Shown here one piece after another: positions 1,479 through 37,706 of a stretch of 50,456 nt of DNA. The notes under the pieces are model-generated. The model was not told the DNA's origin. It was given only the letters and a program-made list of their open reading frames with translations, and searched no databases. Numbering within the stretch: position 1 is the stretch's first letter; each line of letters starts with the position of its first letter. A program made the position numbers and the translations under genes. The stretch spans positions 1-50,456 of the forward strand of contig JAPULJ010000020.1 of NCBI GenBank assembly GCA_027295145.1, in the 5' to 3' direction. The stretch is from Alphaproteobacteria bacterium (GTDB lineage Bacteria > Pseudomonadota > Alphaproteobacteria > JAPULJ01).

Positions 1479-1534
1479 ATCCTCTCGTAACCACAGCAAC
1501 TTAGGTGCGCCCGGTCTGAAAAGGAAGGCAGAAT

Positions 1535-3649: not shown

Positions 3650-4240
3650 ATGGCGGTAATGTTGGAGTTTATCCGGCGCGAAGCGCTGGCGGTGGGGCTT
3701 GCGTTGGCGCTGTCGATGGTGACAGCATTGCCTGGCGCTTCCGTTTCGCGGGCGGCGGCGGACAAGGAGAATACAATCGTTCTGACCACCAAATATGGCC
3801 GAACGATTATTAAGCTCCGCCCCGACCTGGCGCCGGAGCATGTCGCGCGTATTAAAAAATTGACCCGCGAGAAATTCTACGATGGCCTCAAGTTCCACCG
3901 CGTGATGGAAGGCTTTATGGCCCAGACCGGCGATCCTCGGGGCAATGGCACCGGCGGTTCGAAATATCCCGACCTCCCGGCGGAATTTACCCAAACGCCC
4001 TTCAAGCGCGGCACCCTCGGCATGGCTCGCTCGTCGGACCCCAACAGCGCCAATTCACAGTTTTTCATTGTCTTTGCGCGGGCCGAGCATCTCGATGGTC
4101 AGTACACGGTCTTCGGCGAGATTGTCTCGGGCATGGAATTCATCGACGCGCTCCGCACAGGACCGGCTTCGCGCGACGGCGTGGTCGACGAACCGGACGT
4201 GATCGAAACCATGCGTCTCGCCAATAGCGCCAAAAAGTAG
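3650..4240 (+). CDS. peptidyl-prolyl cis-trans isomerase, cyclophilin type, with N-terminal signal peptide
   Basis: FHRVMEGFMAQTGDP, SANSQFFI and FGEIVSGME are cyclophilin motifs. Hydrophobic leader ALAVGLALALSMVTALPGASV. Confidence 0.9.
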   Translation: MAVMLEFIRREALAVGLALALSMVTALPGASVSRAAADKENTIVLTTKYGRTIIKLRPDLAPEHVARIKKLTREKFYDGLKFHRVMEGFMAQTGDPRGNGTGGSKYPDLPAEFTQTPFKRGTLGMARSSDPNSANSQFFIVFARAEHLDGQYTVFGEIVSGMEFIDALRTGPASRDGVVDEPDVIETMRLANSAKK

Positions 4241-4305
4241 GCGCGCTGCGTCTTCCGACGATCTATGCTTCTACGCGGGTTTGGACAGACGGAGAAGCGA
4301 TCACC

Positions 4306-4761
4306 ATGCCGCCGGCGAGCAAGCAGAGCACAATCGACGGAGATGCCCCAACTTACCGGCTGGAGCATCAAATCGGGCACTTGTTGCGGCGGTCCCACCA
4401 GCGTGCCTCGGCGATCTTCATGGCCCGGTTTGCTGTCCACGGATTGACCCCAACCCAATTCGCGGCGCTGGCCAAGATCAGCGACGAGAATGAAGTCTCG
4501 CAGAACCAACTCGGACGCCTGACAGCGATGGATCCGGCGACCATGAAGGGGGTCATCGACCGCCTGCGCGGGCGCTCGTTGATCGTCAGCAAACCGGACC
4601 TGACAGACCGGCGGCGAACATTATGGAGGCTCACCGATTCCGGCAAGCAAACCCTTACCCAAGCCTTGCCGGCGGGCTTGGAAACGACCGAAGCAACCTT
4701 GGCGCCGCTCGACGCCAAGGAGCGGCGGGTATTTTTGGAGTTGCTTTCCCGCTTGATTTAA
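4306..4761 (+). CDS. MarR-family transcriptional regulator
   Basis: 151-aa ORF with a winged-HTH pattern (LTPTQFAALAKI...SQNQLGRLTAMDPATMKGVIDRLRGRSLI...DRRR). Confidence 0.85.
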   Translation: MPPASKQSTIDGDAPTYRLEHQIGHLLRRSHQRASAIFMARFAVHGLTPTQFAALAKISDENEVSQNQLGRLTAMDPATMKGVIDRLRGRSLIVSKPDLTDRRRTLWRLTDSGKQTLTQALPAGLETTEATLAPLDAKERRVFLELLSRLI

Positions 4762-4805
4762 GATGGCGCTTGCGCAAATCGGACGTCGGGATTAGTATGA
4801 ATTAA

Positions 4806-4823
4806 TTGTTCGTATACAAACAA
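4806..4823. promoter_or_regulatory. imperfect 18-bp palindrome TTGTTCGTATACAAACAA, candidate MarR-type operator
   Basis: 8 of 9 arm positions pair. It lies in the only AT-rich gap (4762-4826) between the MarR gene and the hydroxylase genes. Confidence 0.4.
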
Positions 4824-4826
4824 TAA

Positions 4827-5735
4827 ATGAGCCCGAGTGAACGGGCCGGCAGGGAGGACAAAAAGCCTACAATGGGCGTCTATTTGCGACCCGAACGACT
4901 TGATCAGGCGCTCGATGCGTTAAGCGCCCAACCGTTGACGATCCTTGCCGGCGGCACTGATTTCTACCCTGGCCGGGTCGGCCGGCCCCTCGACGACGAT
5001 GTTCTCGACATAACCGCCCTGGGCGCCCTGCGCGGCATCGAGGATCGCGGCGATCACTGGCGCATTGGCGCGCTGGCCACCTGGAGCGATCTTGTCCGCG
5101 CCGATACGCCGCCCGCCTTCGACGGGCTGAAGGATGCGGCGCGCGAGATCGGCGGCCTGCAAATCCAGAATACCGGCACGCTTGCCGGCAATCTCTGCAA
5201 CGCATCGCCAGCCGGCGACGGCGCCCCCGTCCTACTCGCCCTCGACGCAAATGTCGCCCTGGCCAGCGCCATGGGGAAGCGCGCGCTGCCGGTGGCCGAT
5301 TTCATCAGCGGCAACCGGAAGACCGCGCTGGAACCGGGAGAGCTGGTGGTCGGGATCACGGTGCCCAAACCGGCACCAGGCGCGGCGGGCAACTTCCTGA
5401 AGCTGGGCGCGCGAAAGTACCTCGTCATCTCGATCGCCATGGTGGCCATCGTCATAGAACCGGAGGAAGCACCGGCAGGCGCAGTGGTTGGGAATGCACG
5501 GGTTGCGGTCGGAGCCTGCGCGCCGGTATCAAAACGCCTCGGCCTCCTTGAAGACGCATTGGCTGGCCAAAAATTGGACCAGGCGCTAGGGGAGATCGCA
5601 ACCGAAAGCCACCTGCGGGGTGAGCTTTCGCCGATCGACGATATTCCCGGCTCAGCAGATTACCGGTGGTCCGCGGCGCTGACATTGCTGCAGCGCGGCC
5701 TGTCCGCCCTCGGCGAAAAGCTCGGAAGCGCGTGA
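4827..5735 (+). CDS. molybdenum hydroxylase FAD-binding (medium, CoxM/XdhB-like) subunit
   Basis: ILAGGTDFYPG and GTLAGNLCNASPAGD motifs of the FAD_binding_5 family. An alternative start at ATG 4872 (MGVYLRPERL...) is possible. Confidence 0.85.
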   Translation: MSPSERAGREDKKPTMGVYLRPERLDQALDALSAQPLTILAGGTDFYPGRVGRPLDDDVLDITALGALRGIEDRGDHWRIGALATWSDLVRADTPPAFDGLKDAAREIGGLQIQNTGTLAGNLCNASPAGDGAPVLLALDANVALASAMGKRALPVADFISGNRKTALEPGELVVGITVPKPAPGAAGNFLKLGARKYLVISIAMVAIVIEPEEAPAGAVVGNARVAVGACAPVSKRLGLLEDALAGQKLDQALGEIATESHLRGELSPIDDIPGSADYRWSAALTLLQRGLSALGEKLGSA

Positions 5736-8500
5736 TGAACGTCGCGAAAAACCTGACCCGGTTCACCCTCAACGGGGCTGCGGCCGAACTGCGTTCGCCG
5801 CCGCTGACGAGGCTGGCTCATGGTTTACGCGACGAGCTTGGGCTGACCGGCACCAAGATCGGCTGCGACGCCGGCGATTGCGGGGCCTGCACGGTGCTGC
5901 TCGATGGCGAGCAAGTGTGCGCCTGTCTGGTCGCAGTCGGGCAAGTCGCCGGACTAGAAGTGACAACGGTCGAGGGCTTGGCCACCGACGGTGCGCTTTC
6001 GGCCCTCCAGGCAGCCTTCCAGCGCCACGGTGCGGCCCAATGCGGCATCTGCTCGCCGGGCATGCTGATGGCCGCCACCGGCTTGCTCGCCAGCAACAAA
6101 CAACCGGACGAGGGCGCGGTGATGGACGCCATCGGCGGGGTGCTGTGCCGCTGCACCGGCTATCGCAAGATAATCGCGGCAATCCTCGATCATGCGGGAA
6201 GCGGTTTGGGCGAAACCCCTGCTTCGGGCGAGGCGGTCGGCGCGCGCATGGCCAAGCTCGACGGTGTCGCGAAACTCAACGGCACGGAGAAATTTGGCGA
6301 CGACAGCGCACCGGAAGACGCCCTATGGCTGCGCGCGGTCCGCTCTCCCCATGCACGAGCGCGCTTTTCTCTTGGTGATTTCTCTGGCGTTCGCGCCCGC
6401 TATCCAGGGCTGGTCGAGATTTTTACCGGTCGCGACGTACCGGGCAGCAATTCATTCGGCGTCTATCCGCTGGGCAAGGACCAGCCGGTGCTCGCCATCG
6501 GCGAGACACGATATCGCGGCGAGGCCATCCTCGCACTGGTCGGCGACAAGGCCAGCATCGAGGCGATCGGCGACGAGGAATTGCCGATCGATTGGCATCC
6601 GCTTGAACCGGTCCTCGGCATCGAAGCCGGGCTAGCCGACGGCGCGACTCTGGTCCAGGACGCCAAGGCGGGAAACATCCTGGCAAGCGGGCATTTGCGA
6701 AAGGGTGATATCAAGGCGGGTTTCGCCGAAGCAGACTTCATAGCCGAGGGGCGCTGGCGGACCTCTTTCGTCGAACACGCCTATATCGAACCCGAAGCCG
6801 GCTGGGCCGAGCGTAAGGGCGAGCGGATCGAGATCTGGGTATCGACCCAGACCCCCTACATGGACCGTGACGAGGTCGCCCATGTCTTGGGCATAGAACG
6901 CGACCAGGTGCGGATCGTGCCCAGCGCATGCGGCGGCGGATTCGGAGGCAAGCTCGATCTGTCGGTTCAGCCCCTGGTGGCGATTGCCGCCTGGAAGCTC
7001 GGCCGGCCGGTGCGCTGCGCCTATTCGAGACCCGAAAGCATGGCCTCGTCGACCAAGCGCCATCCGGCGCGGATCACCGCGCGCGCCGGCTGCACCACAG
7101 ACGGCAAGCTGACTGCTTTCGCCTTCCACGGCGATTTCGATACCGGCGCCTACGCCTCCTGGGGGCCGACCGTCGCCGACCGGGTACCGATCCACGCGAC
7201 CGGGCCCTTCGTCGTGCCCAATGTGGAGAATACCTCCGTCGCGGTTCACACCAACGCACCGCCCTCGGGCGCTTTCCGCGGCTTCGGCGTGCCCCAGGCG
7301 GCGCTGGCTCACGAGGCGCTCTACGACGAATTGGCCGAGAAATGCGGGATCGATCCCTTGGAATTCCGCCTCATCAACGCCATCGGCGCAGGACAGGAAA
7401 CCGCGACGGGGCAGGTGCTCGAAGCCAGCGCCGGGCTCGGCGCCTGTCTCCAAGCGCTGAAGCCCCACTGGGACGAAGCCCGCAAAGTTGCCGAAGCGGG
7501 CAATCACAGAAGTACCAACGGCACCGTCCGCGGGGTTGGGATTGGCTGCATGTGGTATGGCTGCGGCAACACCTCGATGTCGAACCCCTCGACAATGCGG
7601 GTGGGGATCGACGCTTCGGGAGGACTGACGCTCTATAACGGCGCGGTCGACATGGGTCAGGGGCCGAACACCATCATGGTGCAAATCTGCGCCGACGCAC
7701 TCGGCCTGCCGGCTTCGCTTTTCACCACGATCATGGGCGACACCGACCTCACCGCCGACGCTGGCAAGTCGTCAGCTTCGCGGCAGACTTTTGTTTCCGG
7801 CAAGGCGGCCCAACTAGCAGGCGAAGATTTGCGACAGCAGATCCTGCGCCTGGCCAATGTCAGCGGCGATGCGCTCATCGATATTGCAAAGAGCGTGATC
7901 ACTGTCCACGAAGGTTACGGGGTGCGCCATATCGAATTGTCAGCGATGAAGGCCAATGCGCACGGCGATGTGCTGACTGGCGAAGGCAGTTTCGATCCGC
8001 CGACCACACCGCTCGACGAATACATGCAAGGGGCGCCTTACGCGACCTATGGCTTCGGCGTCCAGATGGCCGAGGTTGAGGTCGATGAGGCGCTCGGCAC
8101 GGTCAAGGTTTCGCGCATCCTTGCCGTCCACGATGTCGGCCGGGCGATCAACCCGATCCAGGTCGAAGGCCAGATTGAGGGCGGCATTGCACAAGGGTTG
8201 GGGCTGGCGCTGATGGAGGAATTCCTCCCCGGCGTTACCGAGAACCTGCACGACTACCTAATCCCCACCGCCGGCGACCTGCCGCCGATTGAGAGCATCC
8301 TCATCGAAGACCCCGAACCACTTGGGCCTTACGGCGCCAAGGGCATCGGCGAGCAGTCGCTGATCCCGACGGCGCCGGCGATATTCGGCGCTATCCATCA
8401 CGCGACTGGCGTGCGCATGCGCTTTGCGCCGGCCACCCCACACCGGGTTCGAGCGGCGATCCTGGCGGCGCGCGGGCCAGGGGGACACGACGATGCCTGA
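5735..8500 (+). CDS. molybdenum hydroxylase, fused [2Fe-2S] small subunit + molybdopterin-binding large subunit (xanthine dehydrogenase/aldehyde oxidase family)
   Basis: N-terminal part has GCDAGDCGACTV, QCGICSPGM and CRCTGYRKI (two 2Fe-2S sites). It is followed by a roughly 750-aa Moco domain with GGGFGGKLD. Start placed at ATG 5735, which overlaps the upstream stop (ATGA); the track's 5666 start would overlap the previous gene by 70 nt. Confidence 0.9.
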   Translation: MNVAKNLTRFTLNGAAAELRSPPLTRLAHGLRDELGLTGTKIGCDAGDCGACTVLLDGEQVCACLVAVGQVAGLEVTTVEGLATDGALSALQAAFQRHGAAQCGICSPGMLMAATGLLASNKQPDEGAVMDAIGGVLCRCTGYRKIIAAILDHAGSGLGETPASGEAVGARMAKLDGVAKLNGTEKFGDDSAPEDALWLRAVRSPHARARFSLGDFSGVRARYPGLVEIFTGRDVPGSNSFGVYPLGKDQPVLAIGETRYRGEAILALVGDKASIEAIGDEELPIDWHPLEPVLGIEAGLADGATLVQDAKAGNILASGHLRKGDIKAGFAEADFIAEGRWRTSFVEHAYIEPEAGWAERKGERIEIWVSTQTPYMDRDEVAHVLGIERDQVRIVPSACGGGFGGKLDLSVQPLVAIAAWKLGRPVRCAYSRPESMASSTKRHPARITARAGCTTDGKLTAFAFHGDFDTGAYASWGPTVADRVPIHATGPFVVPNVENTSVAVHTNAPPSGAFRGFGVPQAALAHEALYDELAEKCGIDPLEFRLINAIGAGQETATGQVLEASAGLGACLQALKPHWDEARKVAEAGNHRSTNGTVRGVGIGCMWYGCGNTSMSNPSTMRVGIDASGGLTLYNGAVDMGQGPNTIMVQICADALGLPASLFTTIMGDTDLTADAGKSSASRQTFVSGKAAQLAGEDLRQQILRLANVSGDALIDIAKSVITVHEGYGVRHIELSAMKANAHGDVLTGEGSFDPPTTPLDEYMQGAPYATYGFGVQMAEVEVDEALGTVKVSRILAVHDVGRAINPIQVEGQIEGGIAQGLGLALMEEFLPGVTENLHDYLIPTAGDLPPIESILIEDPEPLGPYGAKGIGEQSLIPTAPAIFGAIHHATGVRMRFAPATPHRVRAAILAARGPGGHDDA

Positions 8501-9974
8501 CGATGGCACTAACGCAGCGGTCGATATCATCACCTGCGACGCCTGTCCGGTCCTATGCCGAATACGCGAGGGGCGGACCGGCGCTTGCGACCGATATGGA
8601 AATGTAAAAGGTGCGCTAACCCGGATGGACCCATTCGTCGTGACCCAGAAGGTAGCTGAAAAAGACGGCCAACTGGTGGCCTTCGGCAGCGAGCAGTGGG
8701 ACGGCTCGATGATCAAGGGTGCGCCGGTCTTCGTCACCGGCATCGGATCGGGCACGACCTATCCGGACTACAAACCTGCGCCGTTCATCATCGCCTCGGA
8801 GCACGAGGGGATCGACATGATAACGGTCGTCTCCGAGGGCATCTTTAGTTATTGCGGTTTCAAGGTGAAGATCGACACCGACCGTTTCATCGGCCCTGAA
8901 ACCGCTTCGGTGCGCGTCGATGGCGAGAAGATCGGCCACGTTACCACCATCGAGTACGGCTCGCAGATGCTATCCCTCGGCGGCGTTCACCACCTGACCG
9001 GCGGTTCCAAGCGCGAGGGCAAGGTGACCTGCGATACGATGCTCAGGCTGGGCGATGGCAATCCGGTCGAGATGAGCGTCGATGGCGGCGTGACGCTGAC
9101 TGTCGAGGCCGGCAAGCCGCCGATCATCGATGGGAACTTAGAGGAGCGCATGCGGGTCGGCTGCGGCTCGGCGACGATCGGTATCTTCGCAAAGCAATGG
9201 TATGGGCACGCCGACGAGGTGATCGTTGTCGACGACCACATCACCGGGGTATTGAGCGAGCACCAGGCCGGCCGATTTCTCGGGCTCGAACCCGCGGGGA
9301 TCCGCGTGCGCGGGCGAAAATCGACTCCGGGTCGTTATTTTCGGGTGGCCGAGCCGGGGACCGGCTGGGGCGGTACCGACATCACCGACCCGCTTCGCAT
9401 CATCGAGAGCATCGATCCCAAGACCGCTTGGTCGGGCCTGCGTCTGATGATGGTCAGCACGACGGGCGAGGACGCAGCCTATTTCGTTCTCGACAATAAT
9501 CTCAAGCCTGTCGCCGTGGACATGCCGGCGCCCCTGCAGGTTGTTGTCGACCGGATCGGCGAGAATTGCGAGCCGTCGCTGTCGACCGTCCTCTTCATGG
9601 CCGGTGCCGGGGGCAGCCTGCGCGCCGGGGTTACGGAGAACCCCGTCCGCCTGACCCATTCGGTCAAGGCCGCCCTGACCCGCGTCACCTGCGGCGGCGC
9701 GCCGGTTTATGTCTGGCCCGGCGGAGGCATCACCTTCATGGTCGACGTCACCACTCTGCCGCAAGGCGCGTTCGGCTCCGTGCCGACCCCGGCGATCGTG
9801 GCGCCCATCGAATTCACGCTGCGGCTGGAGGATTACGGCGCCATGGGCGGGCACTTGGACGCCGTGCGCCGGGTCGAGGAGATTGCCGACACCGACCGGT
9901 TGAAGTCGATCCGCTGGCACGATACCGCGCCCTGGCCCGGTGCGCCGCTGGCCGGTGTGGGGGAGGGGTCATGA
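8493..9974 (+). CDS. Cys-rich protein of the family annotated as 6-hydroxynicotinate reductase (Hnr-like); function here unproven
   Basis: 493-aa ORF. The N-terminus is MPDDGTNAAVDIITCDACPVLCRIREGRTGACDRYGN (C-x2-C-x3-C ... C). The family assignment is from memory of RefSeq-annotated homologues. Start at ATG 8493, an 8-nt overlap with the upstream gene. Confidence 0.6.
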   Translation: MPDDGTNAAVDIITCDACPVLCRIREGRTGACDRYGNVKGALTRMDPFVVTQKVAEKDGQLVAFGSEQWDGSMIKGAPVFVTGIGSGTTYPDYKPAPFIIASEHEGIDMITVVSEGIFSYCGFKVKIDTDRFIGPETASVRVDGEKIGHVTTIEYGSQMLSLGGVHHLTGGSKREGKVTCDTMLRLGDGNPVEMSVDGGVTLTVEAGKPPIIDGNLEERMRVGCGSATIGIFAKQWYGHADEVIVVDDHITGVLSEHQAGRFLGLEPAGIRVRGRKSTPGRYFRVAEPGTGWGGTDITDPLRIIESIDPKTAWSGLRLMMVSTTGEDAAYFVLDNNLKPVAVDMPAPLQVVVDRIGENCEPSLSTVLFMAGAGGSLRAGVTENPVRLTHSVKAALTRVTCGGAPVYVWPGGGITFMVDVTTLPQGAFGSVPTPAIVAPIEFTLRLEDYGAMGGHLDAVRRVEEIADTDRLKSIRWHDTAPWPGAPLAGVGEGS

Positions 9975-10891
9975 CCGGCCCAGCGCCTGTGCAAGCCGTG
10001 CTGCCCGGTGGACGCCGGCATTTCCAGCACGGGCCCATCGACTTGGTGATAGAGGTTTTCGGCGCGCCGGAGGAGGTAGCAGCTGCCTACACGCAGGCCT
10101 GGGCGCGCTTTAAAACCGTGCTCGCCGAGCTTGTTCAGGAGCTACCGGCCCTACGACGGCCCGTGTCGGACGCGGGAGCAATGCGGGGATCGATCGCAAT
10201 CGCCATGCGCGAAGTCTGCTTGGCCCACGGGGCCGTATTCCTGACCTCGATGGCGGCGGTCGCGGGCGCGGTCGCCGATGCGGTACTGGCGGCGCTGACG
10301 CCGGGCCGGCGGCTCGATAAAGCCTATGTCAACAACGGCGGCGATATCGCGCTCTATCTGGCGCCAGGGCAGGCCTTGCGCGCCGGCATCGTCACAATGG
10401 GAGCGACGCCGGGCCTCGATGGCGCGGCGCTGATCGACAGCCGAACAAGCGTGCGCGGCATTGCCACCAGCGGCTGGCGCGGGCGTAGCCAATCCCTCGG
10501 CATTGCCGATTCGGTCACGGTGCTGGCCGGTAACGCCGCGATGGCCGACGTGTGCGCCACGCTTATTGCCAACGCGGTCGATATCGAAGACAAGGCGATC
10601 CGGCGCGTGCCTGCATATTCTCTCGACCCTGACAGCGATCTAGGAACGCGGTTTGTAACCATCGGGGTCGGCCGATTGCCGCCGGAACGTATCGAGCGCG
10701 CTCTCGCGAGCGGCGTGAACGCGGCCCGGGACATGCACGGGCGCGGCCTCATCGCCGGGGCGCTTCTCAGTCTTCAGGGACGTTTCCAGAATGTGGGCGA
10801 TGATGAAGTACGCCTTGGCACTGAAGAAAAATTCATAATCCCCGGCTTTGCCGGGTTGTCCTCAATAGGCAGGATCGAAGCAAGGATTTGA
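9971..10891 (+). CDS. UPF0280 family protein (ApbE-like fold by recollection)
   Basis: 306-aa ORF starting at an ATGA overlap with the upstream gene (MTGPAPVQAVLPGGRRHFQHGPIDLVIEVFG...). The 9566 start given in the track lies inside the previous gene. Confidence 0.65.
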   Translation: MTGPAPVQAVLPGGRRHFQHGPIDLVIEVFGAPEEVAAAYTQAWARFKTVLAELVQELPALRRPVSDAGAMRGSIAIAMREVCLAHGAVFLTSMAAVAGAVADAVLAALTPGRRLDKAYVNNGGDIALYLAPGQALRAGIVTMGATPGLDGAALIDSRTSVRGIATSGWRGRSQSLGIADSVTVLAGNAAMADVCATLIANAVDIEDKAIRRVPAYSLDPDSDLGTRFVTIGVGRLPPERIERALASGVNAARDMHGRGLIAGALLSLQGRFQNVGDDEVRLGTEEKFIIPGFAGLSSIGRIEARI

Positions 10892-10946
10892 ATGAAGTGA
10901 GCCGCGCGGATATGGCCCCGCGCAATTTACAAACGGAGGGAGTGAG

Positions 10947-12176
10947 ATGAATATCAAGATGACGCGCAGGATTGTTATGGCCGGCGTCGCGGCGGCGGCG
11001 GCAAGCATGGCGCTTAACGCGCCTGGTGCATTGGCCGAAGGGTCGATCAAAATCGGCGAAATCAATTCCTACAGCCGATTGCCGGCCTTCACGCTGCCCT
11101 ACCGCAACGGCTGGCAGTTGGCGTTGCAGGAGATCAACGCTGGCGGCGGCATCAACGGCAAGACGCTGATCGTGATCAGCCGCGACGATGCCGGCAAACC
11201 CGGCAATGCGGTCAAGATTGCCGCAGAACTGGTCGCCAAGGACAAGGTCAACATGCTGATGGGTACGTTCTTCTCCCATATCGGGCTAGCGGTCACCGAC
11301 TTCGCCGGCAAGTCCAAGACCTTCTTTCTCGCTGCCGAGCCGCTGACCGACGCGATCGTCTGGAAGAAGGGCAATCGTTATACCTTCCGCTTGCGCCCCT
11401 CGACCCACATGCAGTCGGCGATGCTGGCCGAGCAGGCGGCCAAGTTGGGGCTCAAGCGCTGGGCCACCATTGCGCCGAACTACGCTTACGGCAAGGACGC
11501 GGTGGCGGCCTTCGTCAGCGAGCTCAAGCGGCGCCAGCCGGGCGTCGAGATCGTCGTCCAACAATGGCCGAAACTGTTCAAGATCGACGCCGGCGCCGAG
11601 GTCCAGGCGCTGATCAGGGCCAAGCCGCAAGGCATCTACAACGTCACTTTTGGCGGCGACCTTGCCAAGTTTGTCCGAGAGGGCAACATCCGCGGGCTGT
11701 TCAAGGGCCGCAAGGTGGCCAGCCTGTTGACCGGCGAGCCAGAATATCTCGACGGACTCAAGAAGGAAGCGCCCAGCGGCTGGATCGTCACCGGCTATCC
11801 TTGGTACGCCATCAAGACTGCGGCGCACACCAAGTTCCTGAAAGCGTACCGGGCCCGCTTCAAGGACTATCCGCGCACCGGATCGCTGGTCGGCTACAAC
11901 GTCATGCTGGCGGCGGCGGCCATCTTGCGCAAAGCCAAATCGCACGACGCCGAGGGGCTGATCGCCGCGGCGCGCGGCATTACCGTCGACTCGCCGTCCG
12001 GGCCCTTCACCTTCCGCGCGATCGACCATCAGTCGACCATGGGCGCATGGGTCGGCCTGACTGCGGTGCGCAAGGGCAAGGGCATCATGGTGAATTGGCA
12101 CTACGCAAACGGCGCCGACTATCTGCCGAGTGACGCGGTGGTCAAGAAGCTGCGCCCGGCGGCGGCGATGAAATAG
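10947..12176 (+). CDS. ABC transporter periplasmic substrate-binding protein (LivK / branched-chain amino acid-amide type)
   Basis: Signal peptide MNIKMTRRIVMAGVAAAAASMALNAPGALA followed by IKIGEINSYS..., typical of the Peripla_BP_6 family. GGAGGGAG Shine-Dalgarno sequence. Confidence 0.9.
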   Translation: MNIKMTRRIVMAGVAAAAASMALNAPGALAEGSIKIGEINSYSRLPAFTLPYRNGWQLALQEINAGGGINGKTLIVISRDDAGKPGNAVKIAAELVAKDKVNMLMGTFFSHIGLAVTDFAGKSKTFFLAAEPLTDAIVWKKGNRYTFRLRPSTHMQSAMLAEQAAKLGLKRWATIAPNYAYGKDAVAAFVSELKRRQPGVEIVVQQWPKLFKIDAGAEVQALIRAKPQGIYNVTFGGDLAKFVREGNIRGLFKGRKVASLLTGEPEYLDGLKKEAPSGWIVTGYPWYAIKTAAHTKFLKAYRARFKDYPRTGSLVGYNVMLAAAAILRKAKSHDAEGLIAAARGITVDSPSGPFTFRAIDHQSTMGAWVGLTAVRKGKGIMVNWHYANGADYLPSDAVVKKLRPAAAMK

Positions 12177-12215
12177 GCGGCGGTCAAGAAGACCACGCCC
12201 AGATAGACGCCGGCC

Positions 12216-14078
12216 ATGGCGTACGACCAGCAGATCGTTCTGCTGCTGACCGGTCTCGCCAACGCGGCGTCGCTGTTCCTGGTGGCATCGGGTCTCTCGT
12301 TGATCTTCGGGGTCACCAGGATCGTCAACTTCGCCCACGGCTCGTTCTACATGCTGGGAGCTTATATTGCCTTTTCGCTGATCGAGGCGATTGGCGGCAG
12401 CGTGGTAGGTTTCTGGGGCAGCGTGCTGTTGGCGGCGCTGGCGGTCGGGGTCATCGGGGTCATCGTCGAGCTGCTCATTCTGCGCTGGATTTACCGGGCG
12501 CCGGAGCTGTTCCAGCTGATTGCCACATTCGGCGTGATCCTGATCATCAAGGATGCAGTGCAGTGGGGCTGGGGGGTCGAGGAAGCGCTTGGCCCCCGCG
12601 CCCCCGGCCTCGATGGCGCGGTTATCATCGGCAGCCAACGAATATCCGAATACGACCTAGTATTGATTGCCGTGGCGATTGCCGTGCTCGTGGCCGTATG
12701 GACGGTGCTGCACCGGACGCGCTGGGGGGTGCTGGTGCGCGCCGCCACCCTCGACCGGGCGATGGCCAGCGCCCTCGGCGTCAATCAGAAATTGCTGTTT
12801 ACCAGCGTCTTCTTTCTTGGCTCGTTCCTGGCCGGGCTCGGCGGCGCGCTCCAGGTACCCAAAGAGACGATCCAACTTCAAATGGATTTCAATATCATCG
12901 CCGAGGTCTTCGTCGTCGTCGTGGTCGGCGGCATGGGCTCGCTCGGCGGCGCCTTCCTGGCCGCCCTCTTGATCGGCGTGCTCAAGAGCTTCGCCACCGT
13001 CTACGTGCCCGAACTGACCCTGGTTCTCACCTTCCTCATCATGGCAGTGGTGCTGGTGGTGCGGCCGTGGGGCTTGCTCGGCCGCAAGGAAAGTGCCCAG
13101 CGGCTTGGCGAAGCCGCCATCGATAAGCCCCTGCGCCCACCCGAGCGCCGGATGTTATGGCTCTACGCGGCGGTTGGTCTGTTCCTGCTGGCGCTGCCGA
13201 TGATCGGCGGCGAGTTTGCCAAGATCCTCGGCGTCGAGATATTAATCTTCACGCTTTTGGCCGCCAGTCTCCATTTCATCATGGGCTCGGGCGGCATGGC
13301 CAGCTTTGGCCACGCCGCCTATTTCGGTCTCGGCGCCTACAGCGCCGCCCTGTTGGTCCAGTACTTGGCATTGCGCATGGAACCCGCGCTGATCGCCGCC
13401 CCGGTCGCCGGCGCGGCGGCCGCCCTCCTGTTCGGCTGGTTCTGCGTGCGCCTGTCGGGGGTCTACATGGCCATGCTGACAATGGCCTTTGCCCAGATCG
13501 CGTGGTCGGTGGTGTTCGGCTGGGATGCGCTGACCGGCGGCGATGACGGGGTCATCGGCATCAGGCGGCCGGATTGGGCCAGGAACGCCACCGCCTTTTA
13601 TTATTTCACACTTGTGATCTGCCTTGCCGGGGTGGCGGCGATGCGGCGGATCCTTTATGCGCCTTTCGGTTACACCATGCGGGCGGGACGCGATTCGCCG
13701 CTGCGGGCCGACGCCATCGGCATCAATCTGCGTCGCCACCAATGGTTCGCTTTCACGCTCTCAGGCGCCTTCGCCGGGGTCGCCGGCGGGCTCTACCTGT
13801 TCTCCAAGGGCAACACTCACCCCGACGTGCTGGCCATCCCGCAATCGATCGATGCGTTGCTGATGGTGCTGATGGGCGGGGTCAATTCGCTCGCCGGCCC
13901 GCTGGTCGGCGGCGCTGTCTTCACTTGGCTGCACGATGAAATCTCGCGCTTCGAGTATTGGCGCTGGATCCTCGGCCTGATCATCGTTGCCATTGTCATC
14001 CTGTTCCCCAAGGGCATCTCGGGCTCGCTCCGCGATCTTCTCGGCGAGCGCCTCGGCTTCGTGCGGCGGGAGGAATAA
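12216..14078 (+). CDS. fused LivH-LivM type ABC permease
   Basis: A single 620-aa ORF. The first ~290 aa are LivH-like (SLIFGVTRIVNFAHGSFYMLGAY). After a linker (RKESAQRLGEAAIDKPLRPPE) comes a LivM-like half (GGMASFGHAAYFGLGAY). Confidence 0.9.
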   Translation: MAYDQQIVLLLTGLANAASLFLVASGLSLIFGVTRIVNFAHGSFYMLGAYIAFSLIEAIGGSVVGFWGSVLLAALAVGVIGVIVELLILRWIYRAPELFQLIATFGVILIIKDAVQWGWGVEEALGPRAPGLDGAVIIGSQRISEYDLVLIAVAIAVLVAVWTVLHRTRWGVLVRAATLDRAMASALGVNQKLLFTSVFFLGSFLAGLGGALQVPKETIQLQMDFNIIAEVFVVVVVGGMGSLGGAFLAALLIGVLKSFATVYVPELTLVLTFLIMAVVLVVRPWGLLGRKESAQRLGEAAIDKPLRPPERRMLWLYAAVGLFLLALPMIGGEFAKILGVEILIFTLLAASLHFIMGSGGMASFGHAAYFGLGAYSAALLVQYLALRMEPALIAAPVAGAAAALLFGWFCVRLSGVYMAMLTMAFAQIAWSVVFGWDALTGGDDGVIGIRRPDWARNATAFYYFTLVICLAGVAAMRRILYAPFGYTMRAGRDSPLRADAIGINLRRHQWFAFTLSGAFAGVAGGLYLFSKGNTHPDVLAIPQSIDALLMVLMGGVNSLAGPLVGGAVFTWLHDEISRFEYWRWILGLIIVAIVILFPKGISGSLRDLLGERLGFVRREE

Positions 14079-14842
14079 TGAGCGTCCTCGAAGTCACCAA
14101 TTTGTCCAAGAGTTTCGGCGGCGTGCGGGCGGTCGACAACGTCTCGTTTACCCTCGATGCCGGCCAGCTCCTGGCGTTGATCGGCCCGAACGGGGCCGGC
14201 AAGACGACCTGCTTCAATATGTTGAATGGGCAGCTCCGCCCCGACGCCGGGGAGATTCGGCTGGACGGGACCTCGATCTTCGGCCTGCCGCCCCGCCGGA
14301 TCTGGCGCCTCGGCGTCGGCCGCACTTTTCAGATCACCGCGACATTTGCCTCGATGACGGTGCGCGAGAATGTGCAGGTTGCGCTTCTGAGCCACCATCG
14401 ACAGCACCGCGCGCTTTTCCGGCCGGCGGCAAGCCGTCATGTGGAGGAGGCGATGACGTTGCTCGCCCGCGTCGGCATGGCGGAGCAACACGACCGCGCC
14501 TGCGGCATACTCGCCTATGGCGACATCAAGCGGGTCGAGCTGGCGGTGGCCCTGGCCAACCAGCCAAAGCTGTTGCTGATGGACGAGCCGACCGCCGGCA
14601 TGGCCCCCAAAGAACGCGTCGAACTGATGGCGCTGGCCGCCGAGATCGTGCGCGAACGCAACATCTGCGTGCTATTCACCGAGCACGACATGGATGTCGT
14701 CTTCGCCCATGCCGACCGCATCATGGTTCTCGACCGGGGCAAATTGATAGCGGAAGGCCCCCCGAAGGAAGTGCGGGCGAACAGTCAGGTCCAGGAAATT
14801 TATCTGGGCAGCGGCGTGGTCCACGGGGTGAAGACGTCATGA
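14078..14842 (+). CDS. ABC transporter ATP-binding protein (LivG-like)
   Basis: Walker A GPNGAGKTT, signature-like LAYGDIKRVELAVALA, Walker B LLLMDEPTAG. Start at a TAATG overlap with the permease stop. Confidence 0.9.
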   Translation: MSVLEVTNLSKSFGGVRAVDNVSFTLDAGQLLALIGPNGAGKTTCFNMLNGQLRPDAGEIRLDGTSIFGLPPRRIWRLGVGRTFQITATFASMTVRENVQVALLSHHRQHRALFRPAASRHVEEAMTLLARVGMAEQHDRACGILAYGDIKRVELAVALANQPKLLLMDEPTAGMAPKERVELMALAAEIVRERNICVLFTEHDMDVVFAHADRIMVLDRGKLIAEGPPKEVRANSQVQEIYLGSGVVHGVKTS

Positions 14843-15564
14843 GCGCCAACGATACTCTCGATATCCTCTCGGTGCGGGGCCTGCACGCTTATTACGGCCG
14901 CGCGCATATTCTATCCGATGTCGGCCTCGAACTAAGGCGCGGCGAAGTCGTCGCCCTGCTCGGCCGCAATGGCGCCGGCAAATCGACGACACTGAAATCG
15001 ATCATGGGGCTGGTCCGCCCGGCGAAGGGCGAAATCAACTTTCTGGGCACATCTATCCACGGCTACGAGCCCTACCGCATCGCCCGGCTGGGGCTCGGCT
15101 ATGTGCCCGAGGACAGGCGCGTCTTCGCCGACCTGACGGTGATGGAGAACCTCGAAACCGGCCGACAGAAGCCGCGACCGGACGCCCCCGAATGGACGCC
15201 CGAGCGGCTATTCGCAATGTTCCCCAAATTGGCCGAGATGCGCAACCGTCAGGCCGGGCGGATGAGCGGCGGTGAGCAGCAAATGCTGACCATCGTGCGT
15301 ACTCTGATGGGCAATCCACGCGCATTATTGCTCGACGAGCCCTCCGAAGGGCTGGCCCCGGTAATCGTCGAGCAGATGGCCAACACCATAATCGACCTCA
15401 AACAGCAGGGACTTTCGATCCTGCTTTCGGAGCAAAACCTCTACTTCTCAACCCTGGTCTCCGATAGAGCCTACATCATCGAGAAAGGCCGCATTCGTTA
15501 CGAAGGAACAATGGAGGAACTGGGCAAGAACGAGGAGGTTCGTGCAGCCTACCTGACCGTTTAG
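14839..15564 (+). CDS. ABC transporter ATP-binding protein (LivF-like)
   Basis: GRNGAGKSTT, MSGGEQQML, LLLDEPSEGLAP. ATGA overlap with the upstream gene. Confidence 0.9.
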   Translation: MSANDTLDILSVRGLHAYYGRAHILSDVGLELRRGEVVALLGRNGAGKSTTLKSIMGLVRPAKGEINFLGTSIHGYEPYRIARLGLGYVPEDRRVFADLTVMENLETGRQKPRPDAPEWTPERLFAMFPKLAEMRNRQAGRMSGGEQQMLTIVRTLMGNPRALLLDEPSEGLAPVIVEQMANTIIDLKQQGLSILLSEQNLYFSTLVSDRAYIIEKGRIRYEGTMEELGKNEEVRAAYLTV

Positions 15565-15597
15565 GATAGAATATAACAATCGAAAGGAAGGGAGGGG

Positions 15598-16182
15598 ATG
15601 AAAGCAACAATTCGCAAGTTCGTCGTCCTGGTCGAAGAAACAAGGCTTGAAATTGGCCAGGCAATCGATCCCCCGACCCGCAAGGCGGCGGCGCTGGCGG
15701 TGATCGAAAACCCCTTCGCCGGCAAGTTCACCGAAGATCTCGAAGGGCTGATGGAGATCGGCGCCGAGCTTGGCGAGGTCCTGGGGCGCAAGGCGGTGGC
15801 GGCGTTGGGAGTCGAGCCGGGCGCCATCGAGAGCTATGGCAAGGCAGCCATCGTCGGCGAAAATGGCGAGCTCGAACACGCCGCCGCGATCCTGCATCCT
15901 CGCCTCGGCAAACCCTTGAGGGCAGCGGTGGAAAAGGGCGCGGCGCTGGTGCCCTCGGCCAAGAAGATGGGCGGCATGGGCACGCCGCTGGACGTACCAT
16001 TGGGGCACAAGGACGCGGCCTACGTGCGGAGCCATTTCGACGCCATCGAGGTGCGCCTCGGCGATGCGCCGCGGGCCAACGAAATCCTTGTCGCCGTGGC
16101 CGTGACCGACAGCGGCCGGCCGTTACCGCGTGTCGGCGGGCTGACCCATGCGGAGGCAGAAGGCAAGGACGGTTTGAGATAG
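15598..16182 (+). CDS. DUF1185 / 'amino acid synthesis' (AA_synth) family protein, function unknown
   Basis: 194-aa ORF beginning MKATIRKFVVLVEETRLEIGQAIDPPTRKAAALAVIENPFAGKF..., which matches my memory of this family's N-terminus. GGAAGGGAGGGG Shine-Dalgarno sequence. Confidence 0.7.
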   Translation: MKATIRKFVVLVEETRLEIGQAIDPPTRKAAALAVIENPFAGKFTEDLEGLMEIGAELGEVLGRKAVAALGVEPGAIESYGKAAIVGENGELEHAAAILHPRLGKPLRAAVEKGAALVPSAKKMGGMGTPLDVPLGHKDAAYVRSHFDAIEVRLGDAPRANEILVAVAVTDSGRPLPRVGGLTHAEAEGKDGLR

Positions 16183-16203
16183 CCGCAAAATAAGGAGCGT
16201 GAC

Positions 16204-17403
16204 ATGGCTTTAGTCGCTACCAATCAGGCCCCGAAGGGCAAACTGGTGGTCAAGAATATCGGCCTGATGCTGTCAGGCGATTTGCAGGCGCCGATCCTCG
16301 ATGCCGACTGCATTATCGCCATCGACGGGCGCATCGATTCCATCGGCAAGGAATCGAGCCTCGACACCAAGGGTGCCGATACGCTTGTTGACGCCAAACA
16401 GACAGCGCTCGCGCCGGGGCTCATCGACAGCCACGTCCATCCCGTGTTTGGCGACTGGACGCCGCGCCAGATTCAGATCAACTGGATCGACAGTTTCCTG
16501 CACGGCGGGGTGACGACGATGATCTCGGCCGGCGAGGTCCATTTGCCGGGCCGGCCCAAGGACATCGTCGGATTAAAAGCGGCGGCAATCACGGCGCAAC
16601 GCTCGTTCGACAATCTGCGCCCCGGCGGCATCAAGTTGCACGCCGGCGCGCCAGTCATCGAAAAGGGCATGGTCGAAGAAGACTTCAAGGATCTCGCCGA
16701 AGCCGGCGTAAAGCTCCTGGGCGAGGTCGGGTTGGGCGGGGTCAAAGAAGGCGAGGAGGCCAAAAAGATGGTCGCCTGGGCGCGCAAATATGGCCTCCAG
16801 AGCACAATACATACCGGCGGCCCCTCAATCCCCGGCTCGGGCCTGATCGATTCCGACGTCGTGCTCGAGGCCGATGCCGACGTGATCGGCCATATCAATG
16901 GCGGCCACACCGCGCTGCCGCTAAAAGAAATCCGGTGCCTGTGCGAGCGCTGCACCCGGGCCATCGAGATCGTTCATAACGGCAATGAAGCGGCGGCGCT
17001 CTACGCCATGCGCACGGCGTTCGAACTAGGCCAGAGCGAGCGTATCATCCTGGGCACCGATTCGCCGGCCGGCTCGGGCGTCCAGCCGCTCGGTATCCTG
17101 CGCATGATCGCCATGCTGAGCGCTATCGGCGATGTGCCGGCCGAGATTGCCTTCTGCTTCGCCACCGGCAATACGGCGCGCATCCGCGAGCTCGATTGCG
17201 GCCTCCTCGAGCCCGGCCGGGCGGCCGATTTCGTCATCCTCGATCGCGCCCAGCACACCGCCGGCAAGACGTTGTTGGAGAGTGTCGGGCTCGGCGATCT
17301 GCCGGGCGTCGGTATGGTCATCATCGATGGTGTTCCCCGCAGCGGCCGCTCGCGCAACACCCCGCCGGCAACGACGCTGCCCGAGATAGTTGGGGCGGGG
17401 TAG
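16204..17403 (+). CDS. metal-dependent amidohydrolase, enamidase-like
   Basis: 399-aa ORF with the amidohydrolase-superfamily HxH motif (GLIDSHVHPVFGDW) and later His/Asp ligand candidates (STIHTGG, GHINGGH, LGTDSP). Confidence 0.75.
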   Translation: MALVATNQAPKGKLVVKNIGLMLSGDLQAPILDADCIIAIDGRIDSIGKESSLDTKGADTLVDAKQTALAPGLIDSHVHPVFGDWTPRQIQINWIDSFLHGGVTTMISAGEVHLPGRPKDIVGLKAAAITAQRSFDNLRPGGIKLHAGAPVIEKGMVEEDFKDLAEAGVKLLGEVGLGGVKEGEEAKKMVAWARKYGLQSTIHTGGPSIPGSGLIDSDVVLEADADVIGHINGGHTALPLKEIRCLCERCTRAIEIVHNGNEAAALYAMRTAFELGQSERIILGTDSPAGSGVQPLGILRMIAMLSAIGDVPAEIAFCFATGNTARIRELDCGLLEPGRAADFVILDRAQHTAGKTLLESVGLGDLPGVGMVIIDGVPRSGRSRNTPPATTLPEIVGAG

Positions 17404-17415
17404 CGGGACCGGCAC

Positions 17416-17919
17416 CTACCGTTCGAGCAGGATGTCCTCGTCCTCGCCGAATTGAAGCTCATCGCAATTGGTGTCATCGCCGCCGCGGTCGATGACGAGG
17501 AAGCGGGTTTCGTGGCCGAGGGCGATGACAGGATGGTGCCAGACGCCGGGAGCGTAGTTCACGCCCTGGCCCTTGCGCGCAAGGAAGGCCCTCAGATCGC
17601 CGGATTTCGGGTCATCGCCGGGAGCCGCCACGACGACGAGAAAATCGGCCTCATCGAGCGGCACGAAGGCCTGGCTGCCCAGCGGGTGGCGCTCGATCAT
17701 TGTAATCCGCAAGGGCAGGGGCTGGGGCTGGGTAACGAAGACACTGAGCAGGGGGCGACCCTCGTCCTGGCCCACATCTATGCGGGCGAGGTCATCATAC
17801 CGCTGGGTCGTGCCCTGGTTGATCGATCGCGGCGTGTTCCCCGTTGTCTCGATGACATCGCCGTAAGGGGAGAAGGCGACGGCGGTAAGGGGCATGGGTT
17901 CGAGCCGAAGCTTGCTCAT
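17416..17919 (-). CDS. allA: ureidoglycolate lyase
   Basis: 167-aa ORF beginning [24 protein letters not shown]. It sits in a purine-catabolic operon with a 4-nt overlap to alc. Confidence 0.88.
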
Positions 17920-18917
17920 CGAATTATGGTTCCGAACAGGCGCAACCGGCTGACCCCGCCGTCGGGGAAGATGTTGAAGCGGATATGAGTGATCGGGCCG
18001 CTACCGGCGAGCTCGGAATCAAAGATATGTTCGCGGTCCATCTGCAGCTTCTGTTCGGGAAGGAGGGATCGCCACTTGACGCTGTCATCGAGCGCGCCTG
18101 CGTCATCCATGCCGTCCAGATCGGCCCCTTCGATCGAGCACCGGTCGGGAAAGTTGCCCTTGAAATTGGCAGTGTCGACGGTGATCCGCCTGATCTCACC
18201 GCGATGTCCAAGGGCGATGATGGCCCAGTCGTTGCCGGGCTCACGCCGGCGCCTGGTTTCCCAGCCATCACCCATATCGACCCCGCGCCCGGGCGCCAGC
18301 AGATTTTCAGGCGAGCCGAAATGCATATCGTTGCAGTCCACGACACGCCCTCCGTGGCGCAGCGCGACGAGGTCAATTAGCTCGGCTGGATCATGGCGCT
18401 CCCAATCGGCACGGACCCTCCCATAGACCCTTAATCGCGCGATCCCGCCATCGGGAAAGATATGCAGGCGCACATGGGTCCAGGCCTCGCCGCTGTCGAC
18501 GGCGAATAGGTGATGGGCATCAGGGCCCAGTCCCATGCGCGGCACGATTTCGGTCCAGGCCGTTTCGTCGCCGGGATCGTCCTGACAGGCGCAGGCTTCG
18601 ATCGAAGCTTCGGGTGGGTAGTTGCCGGTAAAATGACTGGTATCGATATCGACGCCCTTGATGATGCCGGGCAGGCCCAGGCGGACGATGCAGAAATCGT
18701 GCCCGTCATCGCGCCGTCGGCGGCTCTCCCATCCGTCCATCCACTTGCCGTGATCGTCATATTTGCCGGCGATGAAGACCGGCGGTGCGGGGCTGAGCAT
18801 TCGTTCCTTCGGAGCGAAGAAATCGTCGGTCGCGAAGATCGCCTTGGCACCCAGGCGCGGCTGCGCCAGGTTTACCCATTTTCGGACGAAGTCTGCGGTT
18901 TCGTGCGGCGCTGTCAT
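17916..18917 (-). CDS. alc: allantoicase
   Basis: 333-aa ORF with two internal allantoicase repeats (DGWE(S/T)RRRR.. occurs twice). Confidence 0.9.
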
Positions 18918-19420
18918 TTGCCGACCGTCTCCTGCAAGCGCAGCCAGACAATGCGGGCGACCTGTTCCAATGCGGTGTTGAATTCGCTGTCGGCATCGTT
19001 AGCAAGGCGCGTTTCGAAGGCCTTCAGGATGGCCGCCCGGCTATTGTCCTTGACGGCAATGATGAAGGGGAAATCGAACTTGGCCTTATAGGCGTCGTTG
19101 AGGCTCCCGAAGCGTTCGAGTTCCTCGGCGCTACAACAATCGAGACCAGCGGCGGCCTGCTCCTCCCTCGAAGATCGGGTCAATTCACCGGCGAGGGCCA
19201 GCTTGCCGGCAAGCTCGGGATGCTCACGCAGCAGGTCAAGCTGCCGCTCGCGCGGGGCGGCGCGCACGGCGCCGACCATGGCTTCGTGCAGCGCATCGAG
19301 CGTCTCGAAGGGACGCGCTTTCATAGCGCTTTCGGCGACCCAGGGCGAATGCTCGAAGACCTCCCCGAGACTGGCAAGAAATGTCGGCAAATCCATCTTG
19401 TTGAGCGCTTGGAGGTTCAT
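18914..19420 (-). CDS. uraD: 2-oxo-4-hydroxy-4-carboxy-5-ureidoimidazoline (OHCU) decarboxylase
   Basis: 168-aa ORF with FEHSPWVAE and [11 protein letters not shown] motifs, in operon context. Confidence 0.88.
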
Positions 19421-21562: not shown

Positions 21563-21567
21563 CGGTG

Positions 21568-22293: not shown

Positions 22294-22362
22294 GCGTTCT
22301 GTCCCGCAGGTCCGGCATATCGTATACACATTGTGATCTGATTATACAAAAAAAGACGATAT

Positions 22363-22379
22363 ATTGGATACAATCCAAT
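22363..22379. promoter_or_regulatory. perfect 17-bp palindrome ATTGGATACAATCCAAT in the divergent gntR/uraH promoter region, candidate operator
   Basis: 7-bp arms with a 3-bp centre, read directly from the sequence. It lies in the roughly 200-bp AT-richer gap between the divergent operons. Confidence 0.45.
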
Positions 22380-22495
22380 GGACAATCTCCCGCGGAACAT
22401 CGACAATGGCCAGAAGACGCTGGCATCGAGGTAAGGGAGGCTCTCCTTGGTGATTGTAAATGGCGCATCGTGGCAATCGGTGCGGGCTCGTTAGG

Positions 22496-24330: not shown

Positions 24331-24334
24331 GGCC

Positions 24335-28172: not shown

Positions 28173-28183
28173 GCGGAACTTGC

Positions 28184-31777: not shown

Positions 31778-31856
31778 GGGGAAAGCAACAATGACTAATG
31801 CGTTACATTAGAAAATAGCAATAACCACCTTAACCGGAAGGATAACGGAGGGTAAT

Positions 31857-37200: not shown

Positions 37201-37216
37201 GGATTGTTTCCTCCAG

Positions 37217-37699: not shown

Positions 37700-37706
37700 T
37701 CAAGAA

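Follow-up and report, generated by a model that had tools for sequence, protein, structure and literature searches.

A candidate MarR-controlled operon for nicotinate uptake and ring reduction in an uncultured alphaproteobacterium

The uncultured alphaproteobacterium represented by GenBank assembly GCA_027295145.1 carries, on contig JAPULJ010000020.1, an intact cluster of eleven open reading frames (ORFs) encoding a MarR-family regulator, the flavin adenine dinucleotide (FAD) and iron-sulphur/molybdenum cofactor (Fe-S/Moco) subunits of a xanthine dehydrogenase-family enzyme, a short 6-hydroxynicotinate reductase (Hnr), a UPF0280 protein, a Liv-type ATP-binding cassette (ABC) importer, a DUF1185 protein and an enamidase. 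All eleven lie on the plus strand at positions 4306-17403 of the 50,456-nucleotide stretch that was analysed, referred to here as the window. Judged by homology, the cluster is likely a MarR-controlled operon for the uptake of nicotinate and the upper, ring-reducing part of its breakdown. Clusters of this type have been known from Proteobacteria since publications of 2006 and 2012 (Alhapel 2006; Shettigar 2012, PMC3511419), and the window adds a further example from an uncultured alphaproteobacterium.

Gene content and enzymes of the cluster

Domain calls on the window proteins with Pfam and NCBIfam models gave the assignments in Table 1, at the same coordinates and with the same domains as an earlier, sequence-only reading of the stretch. 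The gene-to-gene gaps are, in order, 65, -4, -8, -4, 55, 39, -1, -4, 33 and 21 bp, with the Fe-S/Moco gene starting at a GTG codon at 5732 and overlapping the FAD-subunit gene by 4 bp. The co-directional arrangement and the overlaps at 5735, 8493, 9971, 14078 and 14839 that had been read earlier were recovered, whereas the statement that all gaps measure 60 bp or less does not hold for the 65-bp gap between the MarR and FAD-subunit genes. Scanning positions 4100-17600 for internal promoters and terminators gave no excess over shuffled sequences, which is consistent with one or few transcripts.

Table 1. Features of the candidate nicotinate operon, with window coordinates and the main basis of each assignment
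Feature	Position	Strand	Basis
MarR-family regulator	4306..4761	+	PF01047
18-bp palindrome, candidate MarR operator	4806..4823		Recurrence in related loci
FAD subunit of nicotinate dehydrogenase, NdhF-like	4827..5735	+	FAD_binding_5 + CO_deh_flav_C
Fused 2x[2Fe-2S] + molybdopterin subunit, NdhS+NdhL+NdhM equivalent	5732..8500	+	Fer2, Fer2_2, Ald_Xan_dh_C, MoCoBD_1/2
6-hydroxynicotinate reductase (Hnr), short form	8493..9974	+	Identity to L081 Hnr
UPF0280 / ApbE-superfamily protein, predicted FAD:protein FMN transferase	9971..10891	+	NF003322, PF27030, fold
Periplasmic substrate-binding protein, Liv/Peripla_BP_6 type	10947..12176	+	PF13458
Fused LivH/LivM-type ABC permease	12216..14078	+	Two BPD_transp_2 stretches
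LivG-type ABC ATPase	14078..14842	+	ABC_tran + BCA_ABC_TP_C
LivF-type ABC ATPase	14839..15564	+	UrtE/LivF best matches
DUF1185 / PF06684 protein, Bacillus chorismate-mutase-like fold	15598..16182	+	PF06684, 2QTP
Enamidase (1,4,5,6-tetrahydro-6-oxonicotinate amidohydrolase)	16204..17403	+	2VUN

The reference for the enzymes was a 20-kb contig (L081), found through a protein 97% identical to the Eubacterium barkeri enamidase of PDB entry 2VUN, which stands in for the E. barkeri cluster. It encodes LysR, Hnr, an ApbE-like protein, Hgd, the nicotinate dehydrogenase subunits NdhF, NdhS, NdhL and NdhM, a permease, enamidase (Ena), DUF1185, Mgm, Mii, MutL, Dml, Hmd and DmdAB. All four dehydrogenase subunits have counterparts in the window, with the S, L and M parts fused into one chain of 922 residues. 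This fusion is 45, 39 and 41% identical to NdhS, NdhL and NdhM of L081 (E 2e-36, 1e-89 and 2e-63, respectively) and matches chains A and B of PDB entry 3HRD, the E. barkeri nicotinate dehydrogenase. Its identity to the window's own XdhB is only 28%, which places it nearer to Ndh. The FAD subunit is 36% identical to NdhF of L081 (E 5e-27).

The 493-residue Hnr carries the sequence CDACPVLC...GACDRYGN and is 41% identical to L081 Hnr over 452 residues (E 2e-102), its residue 12 pairing with L081 residue 65; database relatives are already labelled 6-hydroxynicotinate reductase at NCBI and JGI. The motif C15-x2-C18-x3-C22-x9-C32 is retained, and its four cysteines, like C224 and C359, are invariant in 81 sequences. 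Sequence and profile searches found neither a Pfam family nor a PDB match for Hnr, and its AlphaFold2 model is weak (predicted local distance difference test, pLDDT, 64.5), with nothing below E 0.3 in Foldseek. The family is small: an all-protein representative search gave 291 representatives with E-values of 1e-30 or better. The closest Hnr is 81% identical in species-representative genomes, and one protein from a metagenome-assembled genome reaches 87%.

The enamidase aligns with 2VUN (residues 13-393 to 3-383) with no gap over 381 residues at E 1.5e-111, retains the HxH motif (DSHVHP) as well as the other conserved blocks, and is 45% identical to Ena of L081. The sequence-only reading had proposed an Hnr and an enamidase at these positions, and both proposals are borne out, the former with the E. 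barkeri-type L081 as the comparison and the latter with 2VUN itself.

The substrate-binding protein of the importer matches PF13458 (E 7.5e-60) and PDB entry 3I45 (E 1.4e-153), a structure for which no paper mentioning it was found, and has a twin-arginine-like leader; the fused permease consists of UrtB- and UrtC-like halves. The ABC transporter of this cluster type has been designated a putative nicotinate ABC transporter (PMC3511419), and the Liv-type binding protein of the window is likewise a putative nicotinate-binding component.

By homology, the importer (10947-15564) would take in the substrate, and the FAD and Fe-S/Moco subunits would convert nicotinate to 6-hydroxynicotinate. Hnr would then reduce this to 1,4,5,6-tetrahydro-6-oxonicotinate (THON), whose ring the enamidase would open to yield 2-formylglutarate and ammonia. 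The later steps may be encoded elsewhere in the genome, most likely as the Azorhizobium route of decarboxylation, oxidation to glutarate and then glutaryl-CoA. The sequence-only reading had arrived at the same succession of hydroxylation, ring reduction and ring hydrolysis; comparison with L081, 2VUN and 3HRD supports it, but it is not new, having already been published (PMC3511419).

Compared with the E. barkeri type, the window shares NdhF, NdhS/L/M, Hnr, the ApbE-like protein, Ena and DUF1185 at 33-53% identity, as well as the pairing of hnr with the ApbE-like gene. It differs in the fusion of NdhS/L/M and in an Hnr without the N-terminal 2x[4Fe-4S] domain. A MarR regulator and a Liv-type ABC importer stand in the window where the E. 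barkeri type has LysR and a PTS_EIIC_2-type permease, and the whole B12-dependent lower pathway is missing.

The proteobacterial nicotinate cluster is known from Azorhizobium caulinodans ORS571 (AZC_2790-2804), Bradyrhizobium japonicum (blr3818-3830), Rhodopseudomonas palustris (RPB_1658-1671) and Bradyrhizobiaceae strain SG-6C, the last of which grows on nicotinate and 6-hydroxynicotinate (PMC3511419). The same article, citing Kitts 1992, has THON further converted via glutarate in Azorhizobium. As that cluster is described, positions 4827-17403 of the window correspond to its first three steps, ABC transporter and pair of conserved proteins whose function is unknown (PMC3511419). The likeness rests on the published description, the AZC, blr and RPB genomes not being among the best 80 loci analysed below, and the host differs in being an uncultured alphaproteobacterium. 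The nic system of Pseudomonas putida KT2440 (NicAB, NicC, NicX, NicD, NicF, NicE, NicR) also begins with a Moco enzyme that hydroxylates nicotinate, and it has a MarR-type regulator. There, however, the ring is oxidatively cleaved, whereas in the route proposed for the window it would be reduced and hydrolysed; no NicC-type flavin monooxygenase or NicX-type dioxygenase domain is found among the eleven operon genes.

Conservation and regulation across related loci

In species-representative genomes, 574 Hnr relatives were found, of which the best 80 loci were analysed; these belong mostly to uncultured Alphaproteobacteria (Rhodospirillales, Kiloniellales-like), together with SAR324 and Betaproteobacteria. 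Among cultured organisms, the cluster is carried by Thalassobaculum fulvum, Pelagibius marinus, Elioraea tepidiphila and Desertibaculum subflavum and, around SPO0826, by Ruegeria pomeroyi. The presence of the eleven window proteins was counted by tblastn, and the 43 loci in which hnr is flanked by 9 kb or more on either side form the full-length set. Genes in the related loci were called as length-based ORFs with a GC3 filter. Long spurious antisense ORFs of up to 975 residues occur opposite the Moco gene in high-GC DNA, e.g., L008:7168-10095 on the minus strand, and mislead length-based calling.

Among the 43 full-length loci, the Moco protein is found in 39, the FAD subunit in 38, UPF0280 in 41, DUF1185 in 30, MarR in 18, Ena in 16 and the ABC genes in 16-18. 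The Hnr start lies within 200 bp of the Moco gene end in 64 of 70 loci. FAD-Moco-Hnr-UPF0280 is thus a near-invariant core whose synteny is kept in most of the 80 loci, and DUF1185, the importer, Ena and MarR are more mobile. Chance does not account for this arrangement.

Both proteins of unassigned function also occur outside Proteobacteria. Besides L081, three further Firmicutes clusters were found, in Acetobacterium bakii, Clostridium sp. DL-VIII and an uncultured Clostridiales contig, and all four (L081-L084) hold the six proteins shared by the window and the E. barkeri type. A PF27030 ApbE-like gene directly follows hnr in each of them. DUF1185 is likewise present in each; in L081 and L082 its gene comes behind ena, in L083 and L084 behind the ApbE-like gene. 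The two proteins, taken earlier as embedded in a proteobacterial version of the pathway, are therefore not peculiar to that phylum and form part of a six-protein core common to both.

The related loci also vary in composition. Within the operon of the closest relatives (L005-L011, L080; e.g., L007:12500-13546), and in 14 loci overall, a Rieske/VanA-type oxygenase of 348 residues lies between the UPF0280 and binding-protein genes, a position occupied by only 55 bp in the window. This oxygenase could act on a related pyridine, e.g., trigonelline, by demethylation or hydroxylation. A sub-class of Hnr with alanine at position 228 (L021, L028, L032, L042, L048, L050, L054 and others) is accompanied by a DUF1185 protein only 44-50% identical to that of the window. 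Its loci have no enamidase and no Liv importer within 10 kb but instead metallo-beta-lactamase, enoyl-CoA hydratase, AMP-ligase and NMT1-type genes, and the sub-class may be a variant that depends on CoA or acts on another substrate. The class of the window, with Thr228, a high-identity DUF1185 and Ena, mirrors E. barkeri. Finally, a family-III CoA-transferase gene stands beside MarR in L061 (3576-4799) and eight other loci, its best NCBIfam match being succinate--glutarate CoA-transferase (513 bits against a cutoff of 750). It fits the Azorhizobium glutarate route and is absent from the window. The window thus differs from some of its relatives in lacking the Rieske oxygenase, the CoA-transferase and the 2-oxoacid:acceptor oxidoreductase (OFOR) genes treated further below.

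The regulator of the window matches PF01047 (E 5e-10) and PF12802, so that the winged-helix domain is present, but it stays below the cutoff of every NCBIfam MarR model. The palindrome TTGTTCGTATACAAACAA is AT-rich, ends 3 bp before the start codon of the FAD-subunit gene and occurs once in the window against 0.04 matches expected. Its core, GTTnGTATACnAAC, is also found in 10 related loci; in nine of them it adjoins the MarR and/or FAD gene, and in one (L066) it lies about 200 bp upstream of hnr. The palindrome is a good candidate for the MarR operator, and the MarR protein is likely the repressor of the operon in a role like that of NicR. By this analogy, it would repress at the palindrome and be released by nicotinate or 6-hydroxynicotinate.

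UPF0280 and DUF1185 as candidate pathway partners

No function has been assigned to UPF0280 in the literature examined. The window protein scores 357.6 bits against NF003322 (cutoff 290), is precomputed as PF27030 (AbpE_bact), the family carried by all its relatives, and is 33% identical to the gene product following hnr in L081 (E 3e-24). At JGI, the relatives are labelled 'ApbE superfamily uncharacterized protein (UPF0280 family)'. A profile of 28 UPF0280 sequences retrieved from the PDB only 2O34, itself a UPF0280 structure (E 4e-12). The AlphaFold2 model of the window protein (pLDDT 85.7, predicted template modelling score 0.86) likewise found 2O34 at ranks 1-2 in Foldseek, followed at ranks 3-32 exclusively by the flavin transferases ApbE, Ftp and FmnB (probability 0.82-1.0, TM-score 0.29-0.46), with nothing else significant. 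Invariant in the 28 sequences, including the E. barkeri type, are VNxGGD (G123, G124, D125), TSG (T166, S167, G168) and ADxxAT (A192, D193, A196, T197), and GGDI and ADxxAT align with motifs of Vibrio cholerae ApbE. In ApbE, the GG(D/E), TSG and ADxxAT motifs have roles in Mg and FAD binding. Inspected by eye, the N-terminus has no hydrophobic signal-like segment, and the protein is therefore probably cytoplasmic. UPF0280 thus resembles ApbE, Ftp and FmnB in fold and motifs but differs from them as a separate, probably cytoplasmic subfamily whose presumed target, Hnr, has neither an FMN_bind domain nor a recognised target motif.

In 69 of 73 proteobacterial loci, UPF0280 starts no more than 200 bp from where hnr ends, and the Firmicutes clusters show the same succession in all four cases, even where the ndh genes lie elsewhere or on the opposite strand. 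Hnr of E. barkeri reportedly contains a covalently bound flavin, one [2Fe-2S] and two [4Fe-4S] clusters. Because the pairing of hnr with UPF0280 is fixed, the most economical explanation is that UPF0280 is a dedicated flavin transferase that installs the covalent flavin on Hnr, and this is somewhat favoured here.

A less probable but serious competitor is that the flavin of Hnr attaches autocatalytically, e.g., on Cys224 or Cys359, and that UPF0280 serves instead in FAD hydrolysis or flavin mononucleotide (FMN) supply, in maturation of the Moco enzyme, or in a catalytic step. It draws on the modest TM-scores against ApbE and on PF02424, the Pfam ApbE family, which gives no match to the window protein even at E up to 1, whereas the E. 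barkeri-type orthologue passes its cutoff (27.9 against 25.6 bits). Moreover, no ApbE-type target motif with an invariant threonine was found in Hnr, and the operon encodes no XdhC-type Moco chaperone, whereas the purine Xdh of the window has one. Against the competitor stand the fixed adjacency to hnr, the uniformly flavin-transferase character of the 30 Foldseek matches after 2O34, the invariance of GGD, TSG and ADxxAT, and the covalent flavin said to be present on E. barkeri Hnr.

The DUF1185 protein matches PF06684 over model positions 1-175 of 175 (246 bits) and, among solved members, 2QTP (SPO0826, E 9e-92) and 3BYQ (E 9e-33). It is 53% identical to the gene product after ena in L081 (E 1e-70), and the family is present in 16 of 16 Ena-containing full-length loci. 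For 2QTP, involvement in 'amino-acid metabolism' was proposed from the neighbouring 'branched-chain amino-acid' ABC genes SPO0822-0825 (PMC2954203). The arrangement of SPO0822-0825 and SPO0826 is the same as that of the ABC genes and DUF1185 in the window, and SPO0822-0825 probably encode a nicotinate importer. Since the neighbouring Liv-type genes are a putative nicotinate importer, the Pfam name of the family, 'AA_synth', is probably misleading.

DUF1185 is retained irrespective of the later fate of the product, which E. barkeri reduces and Azorhizobium decarboxylates. Like the nicotinate route, the trigonelline pathway releases its ring nitrogen hydrolytically and then passes through an aldehyde-acid, enamine or 2-formyl-dicarboxylate stage. 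On both grounds, DUF1185 might act at the enamine or 2-formylglutarate stage after the enamidase and help to process the labile enamine or 2-formyl acid; this assignment is tentative. Within the trigonelline pathway, TgnF, a DUF1185 homologue, is reported to stimulate the aldehyde dehydrogenase step, the oxidation of succinate semialdehyde (PMC7913881). TgnF of Acinetobacter baylyi belongs to the same Pfam family and likewise to a pyridine-carboxylate catabolic cluster, but its pathway and partner enzymes are not those of the window, the two being likened by family and description.

Substrate, electron supply and genomic setting

Several observations weigh against the pathway and the roles proposed for its parts. 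For the Moco subunit, no curated NCBIfam model reaches its cutoff, the best being selenium-dependent xanthine dehydrogenase (584 against 830). Ena within 10 kb in only 16 of the 43 full-length loci means that the module is not rigid. No homologue of Hgd, Hmd, Mgm, Mii, Dml or DmdAB was detected in the 50-kb window by tblastn of the L081 proteins (E 1e-5 or better), in line with the absence of later-step genes remarked on from the sequence. Purified E. barkeri enamidase is reportedly bifunctional by itself, so that DUF1185 is not strictly required. Thr228, in the GCGSAT motif of Hnr, was considered as the flavinylation site and rejected, as it is replaced by alanine in eight loci in which UPF0280 still adjoins hnr; the remaining candidate residues are Ser226 and about 12 further invariant serines and threonines. 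Lastly, Hnr of the window lacks the N-terminal 2x[4Fe-4S] ferredoxin domain, with Fer4 families matching L081 Hnr but not the window protein, and the operon encodes no electron donor for Hnr. The eight ferredoxin cysteines are absent from all 80 related loci and present only in the E. barkeri type.

Hnr occurs in three forms: a ferredoxin-bearing form of about 510 residues, the short form of the window, and two natural fusions (P0374, P0365) in which Hnr is joined to Fer4, a DPD-type 4Fe-4S domain and a GltD-like NAD(P)H flavoprotein. Genes for a GltD-like NAD(P)H flavoprotein and an OFOR also lie upstream of the cluster in 9-11 related loci, e.g., L023 and L026; the OFOR alpha subunit exceeds the TIGR03710 cutoff. 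These neighbours and fusions point to possible electron donors for Hnr. The window has neither the GltD-like gene nor the OFOR, and its Hnr may possibly draw electrons directly from the translationally overlapped Moco enzyme. A further protein of 792 residues (P0119) was considered as a Rosetta-stone fusion of Hnr and UPF0280; it leaves the Hnr sequence around residue 443 and resumes as UPF0280 and is therefore probably an artefact of frameshift, read-through or gene calling.

A more elaborate proposal combines three parts. UPF0280 would be a cytoplasmic ApbE-type transferase of phosphoester-linked FMN to Hnr, DUF1185 would be the enamine or 2-formyl-acid partner of the enamidase, as TgnF, and the ferredoxin-less Hnr would take two electrons directly from nicotinate dehydrogenase. 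That all three hold together is improbable.

The substrate is likely nicotinate, entering as nicotinate or 6-hydroxynicotinate. It is unlikely that the same enzyme logic serves another N-heterocyclic acid, such as a pyridine carboxylate, a substituted nicotinate or a trigonelline-derived compound. The heterogeneity of the family would fit such a role, with two DUF1185 classes, an Ala228 subgroup that has other enzymes in place of Ena, and the extra Rieske/VanA-type oxygenase inside the operon of the closest relatives. The window, however, falls in the Thr228 class with high-identity DUF1185 and Ena, which agrees with the E. barkeri set in every protein, its enamidase aligns gap-free to a THON-specific enzyme, and carriers of the cluster type grow on nicotinate (PMC3511419).

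Downstream, the operon meets a set of purine and ureide catabolism genes at 17416-28172, as the sequence-only reading had stated in placing the block next to a purine regulon. The ureide genes, on the minus strand, encode ureidoglycolate lyase, allantoicase, OHCU decarboxylase, a PuuE-type allantoinase, a membrane PuuD urate oxidase and a GntR regulator. Beyond them come XdhABC, a deaminase and an ABC importer of the Bmp type for nucleosides; the set as a whole, complete from purine to ureidoglycolate, spans 17416-32945. It converges on the nicotinate operon across a 12-bp gap, and this adjacency is not conserved in relatives. That the cluster belongs to this regulon and handles a purine-derived ring, which had been held equally possible, is suggested by the 12 bp to the convergent ureidoglycolate lyase gene and the full xanthine-to-ureidoglycolate set, but is very improbable, given that the purine genes lie on the other strand or in separate units with their own GntR regulator, that they neighbour the Hnr cluster in none of the 80 related loci, bar a single PuuE-like match, and that the window has its own separate XdhABC.

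The rest of the window holds genes of other kinds. A further Liv-type ABC system ends within positions 1-3028, which also hold an amidase gene (1535-3028), and the GC content of the first 2 kb is 0.50 against about 0.63 elsewhere. Mercury resistance genes lie on the minus strand at 35370-38393, encoding, at 35370-36803, a MerA-like pyridine-nucleotide disulphide oxidoreductase, at 36898-37356, an HMA-domain protein and, at 37707-38393, a MerB alkylmercury lyase. On the plus strand, at 41869-44711, an AMP-dependent ligase gene precedes one for a 421-residue protein with reductive-dehalogenase and 2x[4Fe-4S] domains, which may be an RdhA-type enzyme of the cytoplasmic, non-respiratory kind. Searches of the window for Rfam families and tRNAs returned nothing.

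The assignment of the pathway mainly confirms textbook-level knowledge. Beyond it, a testable function arises for the UPF0280 family, the flavinylation of Hnr, and another for DUF1185. If electrons do pass directly from nicotinate dehydrogenase to Hnr, the conversion of nicotinate to THON would be internally redox-balanced and need no external low-potential donor. If the three-part proposal is true, the two proteins of unassigned function would be functional parts of an ancient six-protein module. For the organism, an uncultured marine or soil alphaproteobacterium, the operon would mean an ability to import vitamin B3 and to remove its nitrogen through ring reduction, with a full set of genes for purine salvage and nitrogen release beside it.

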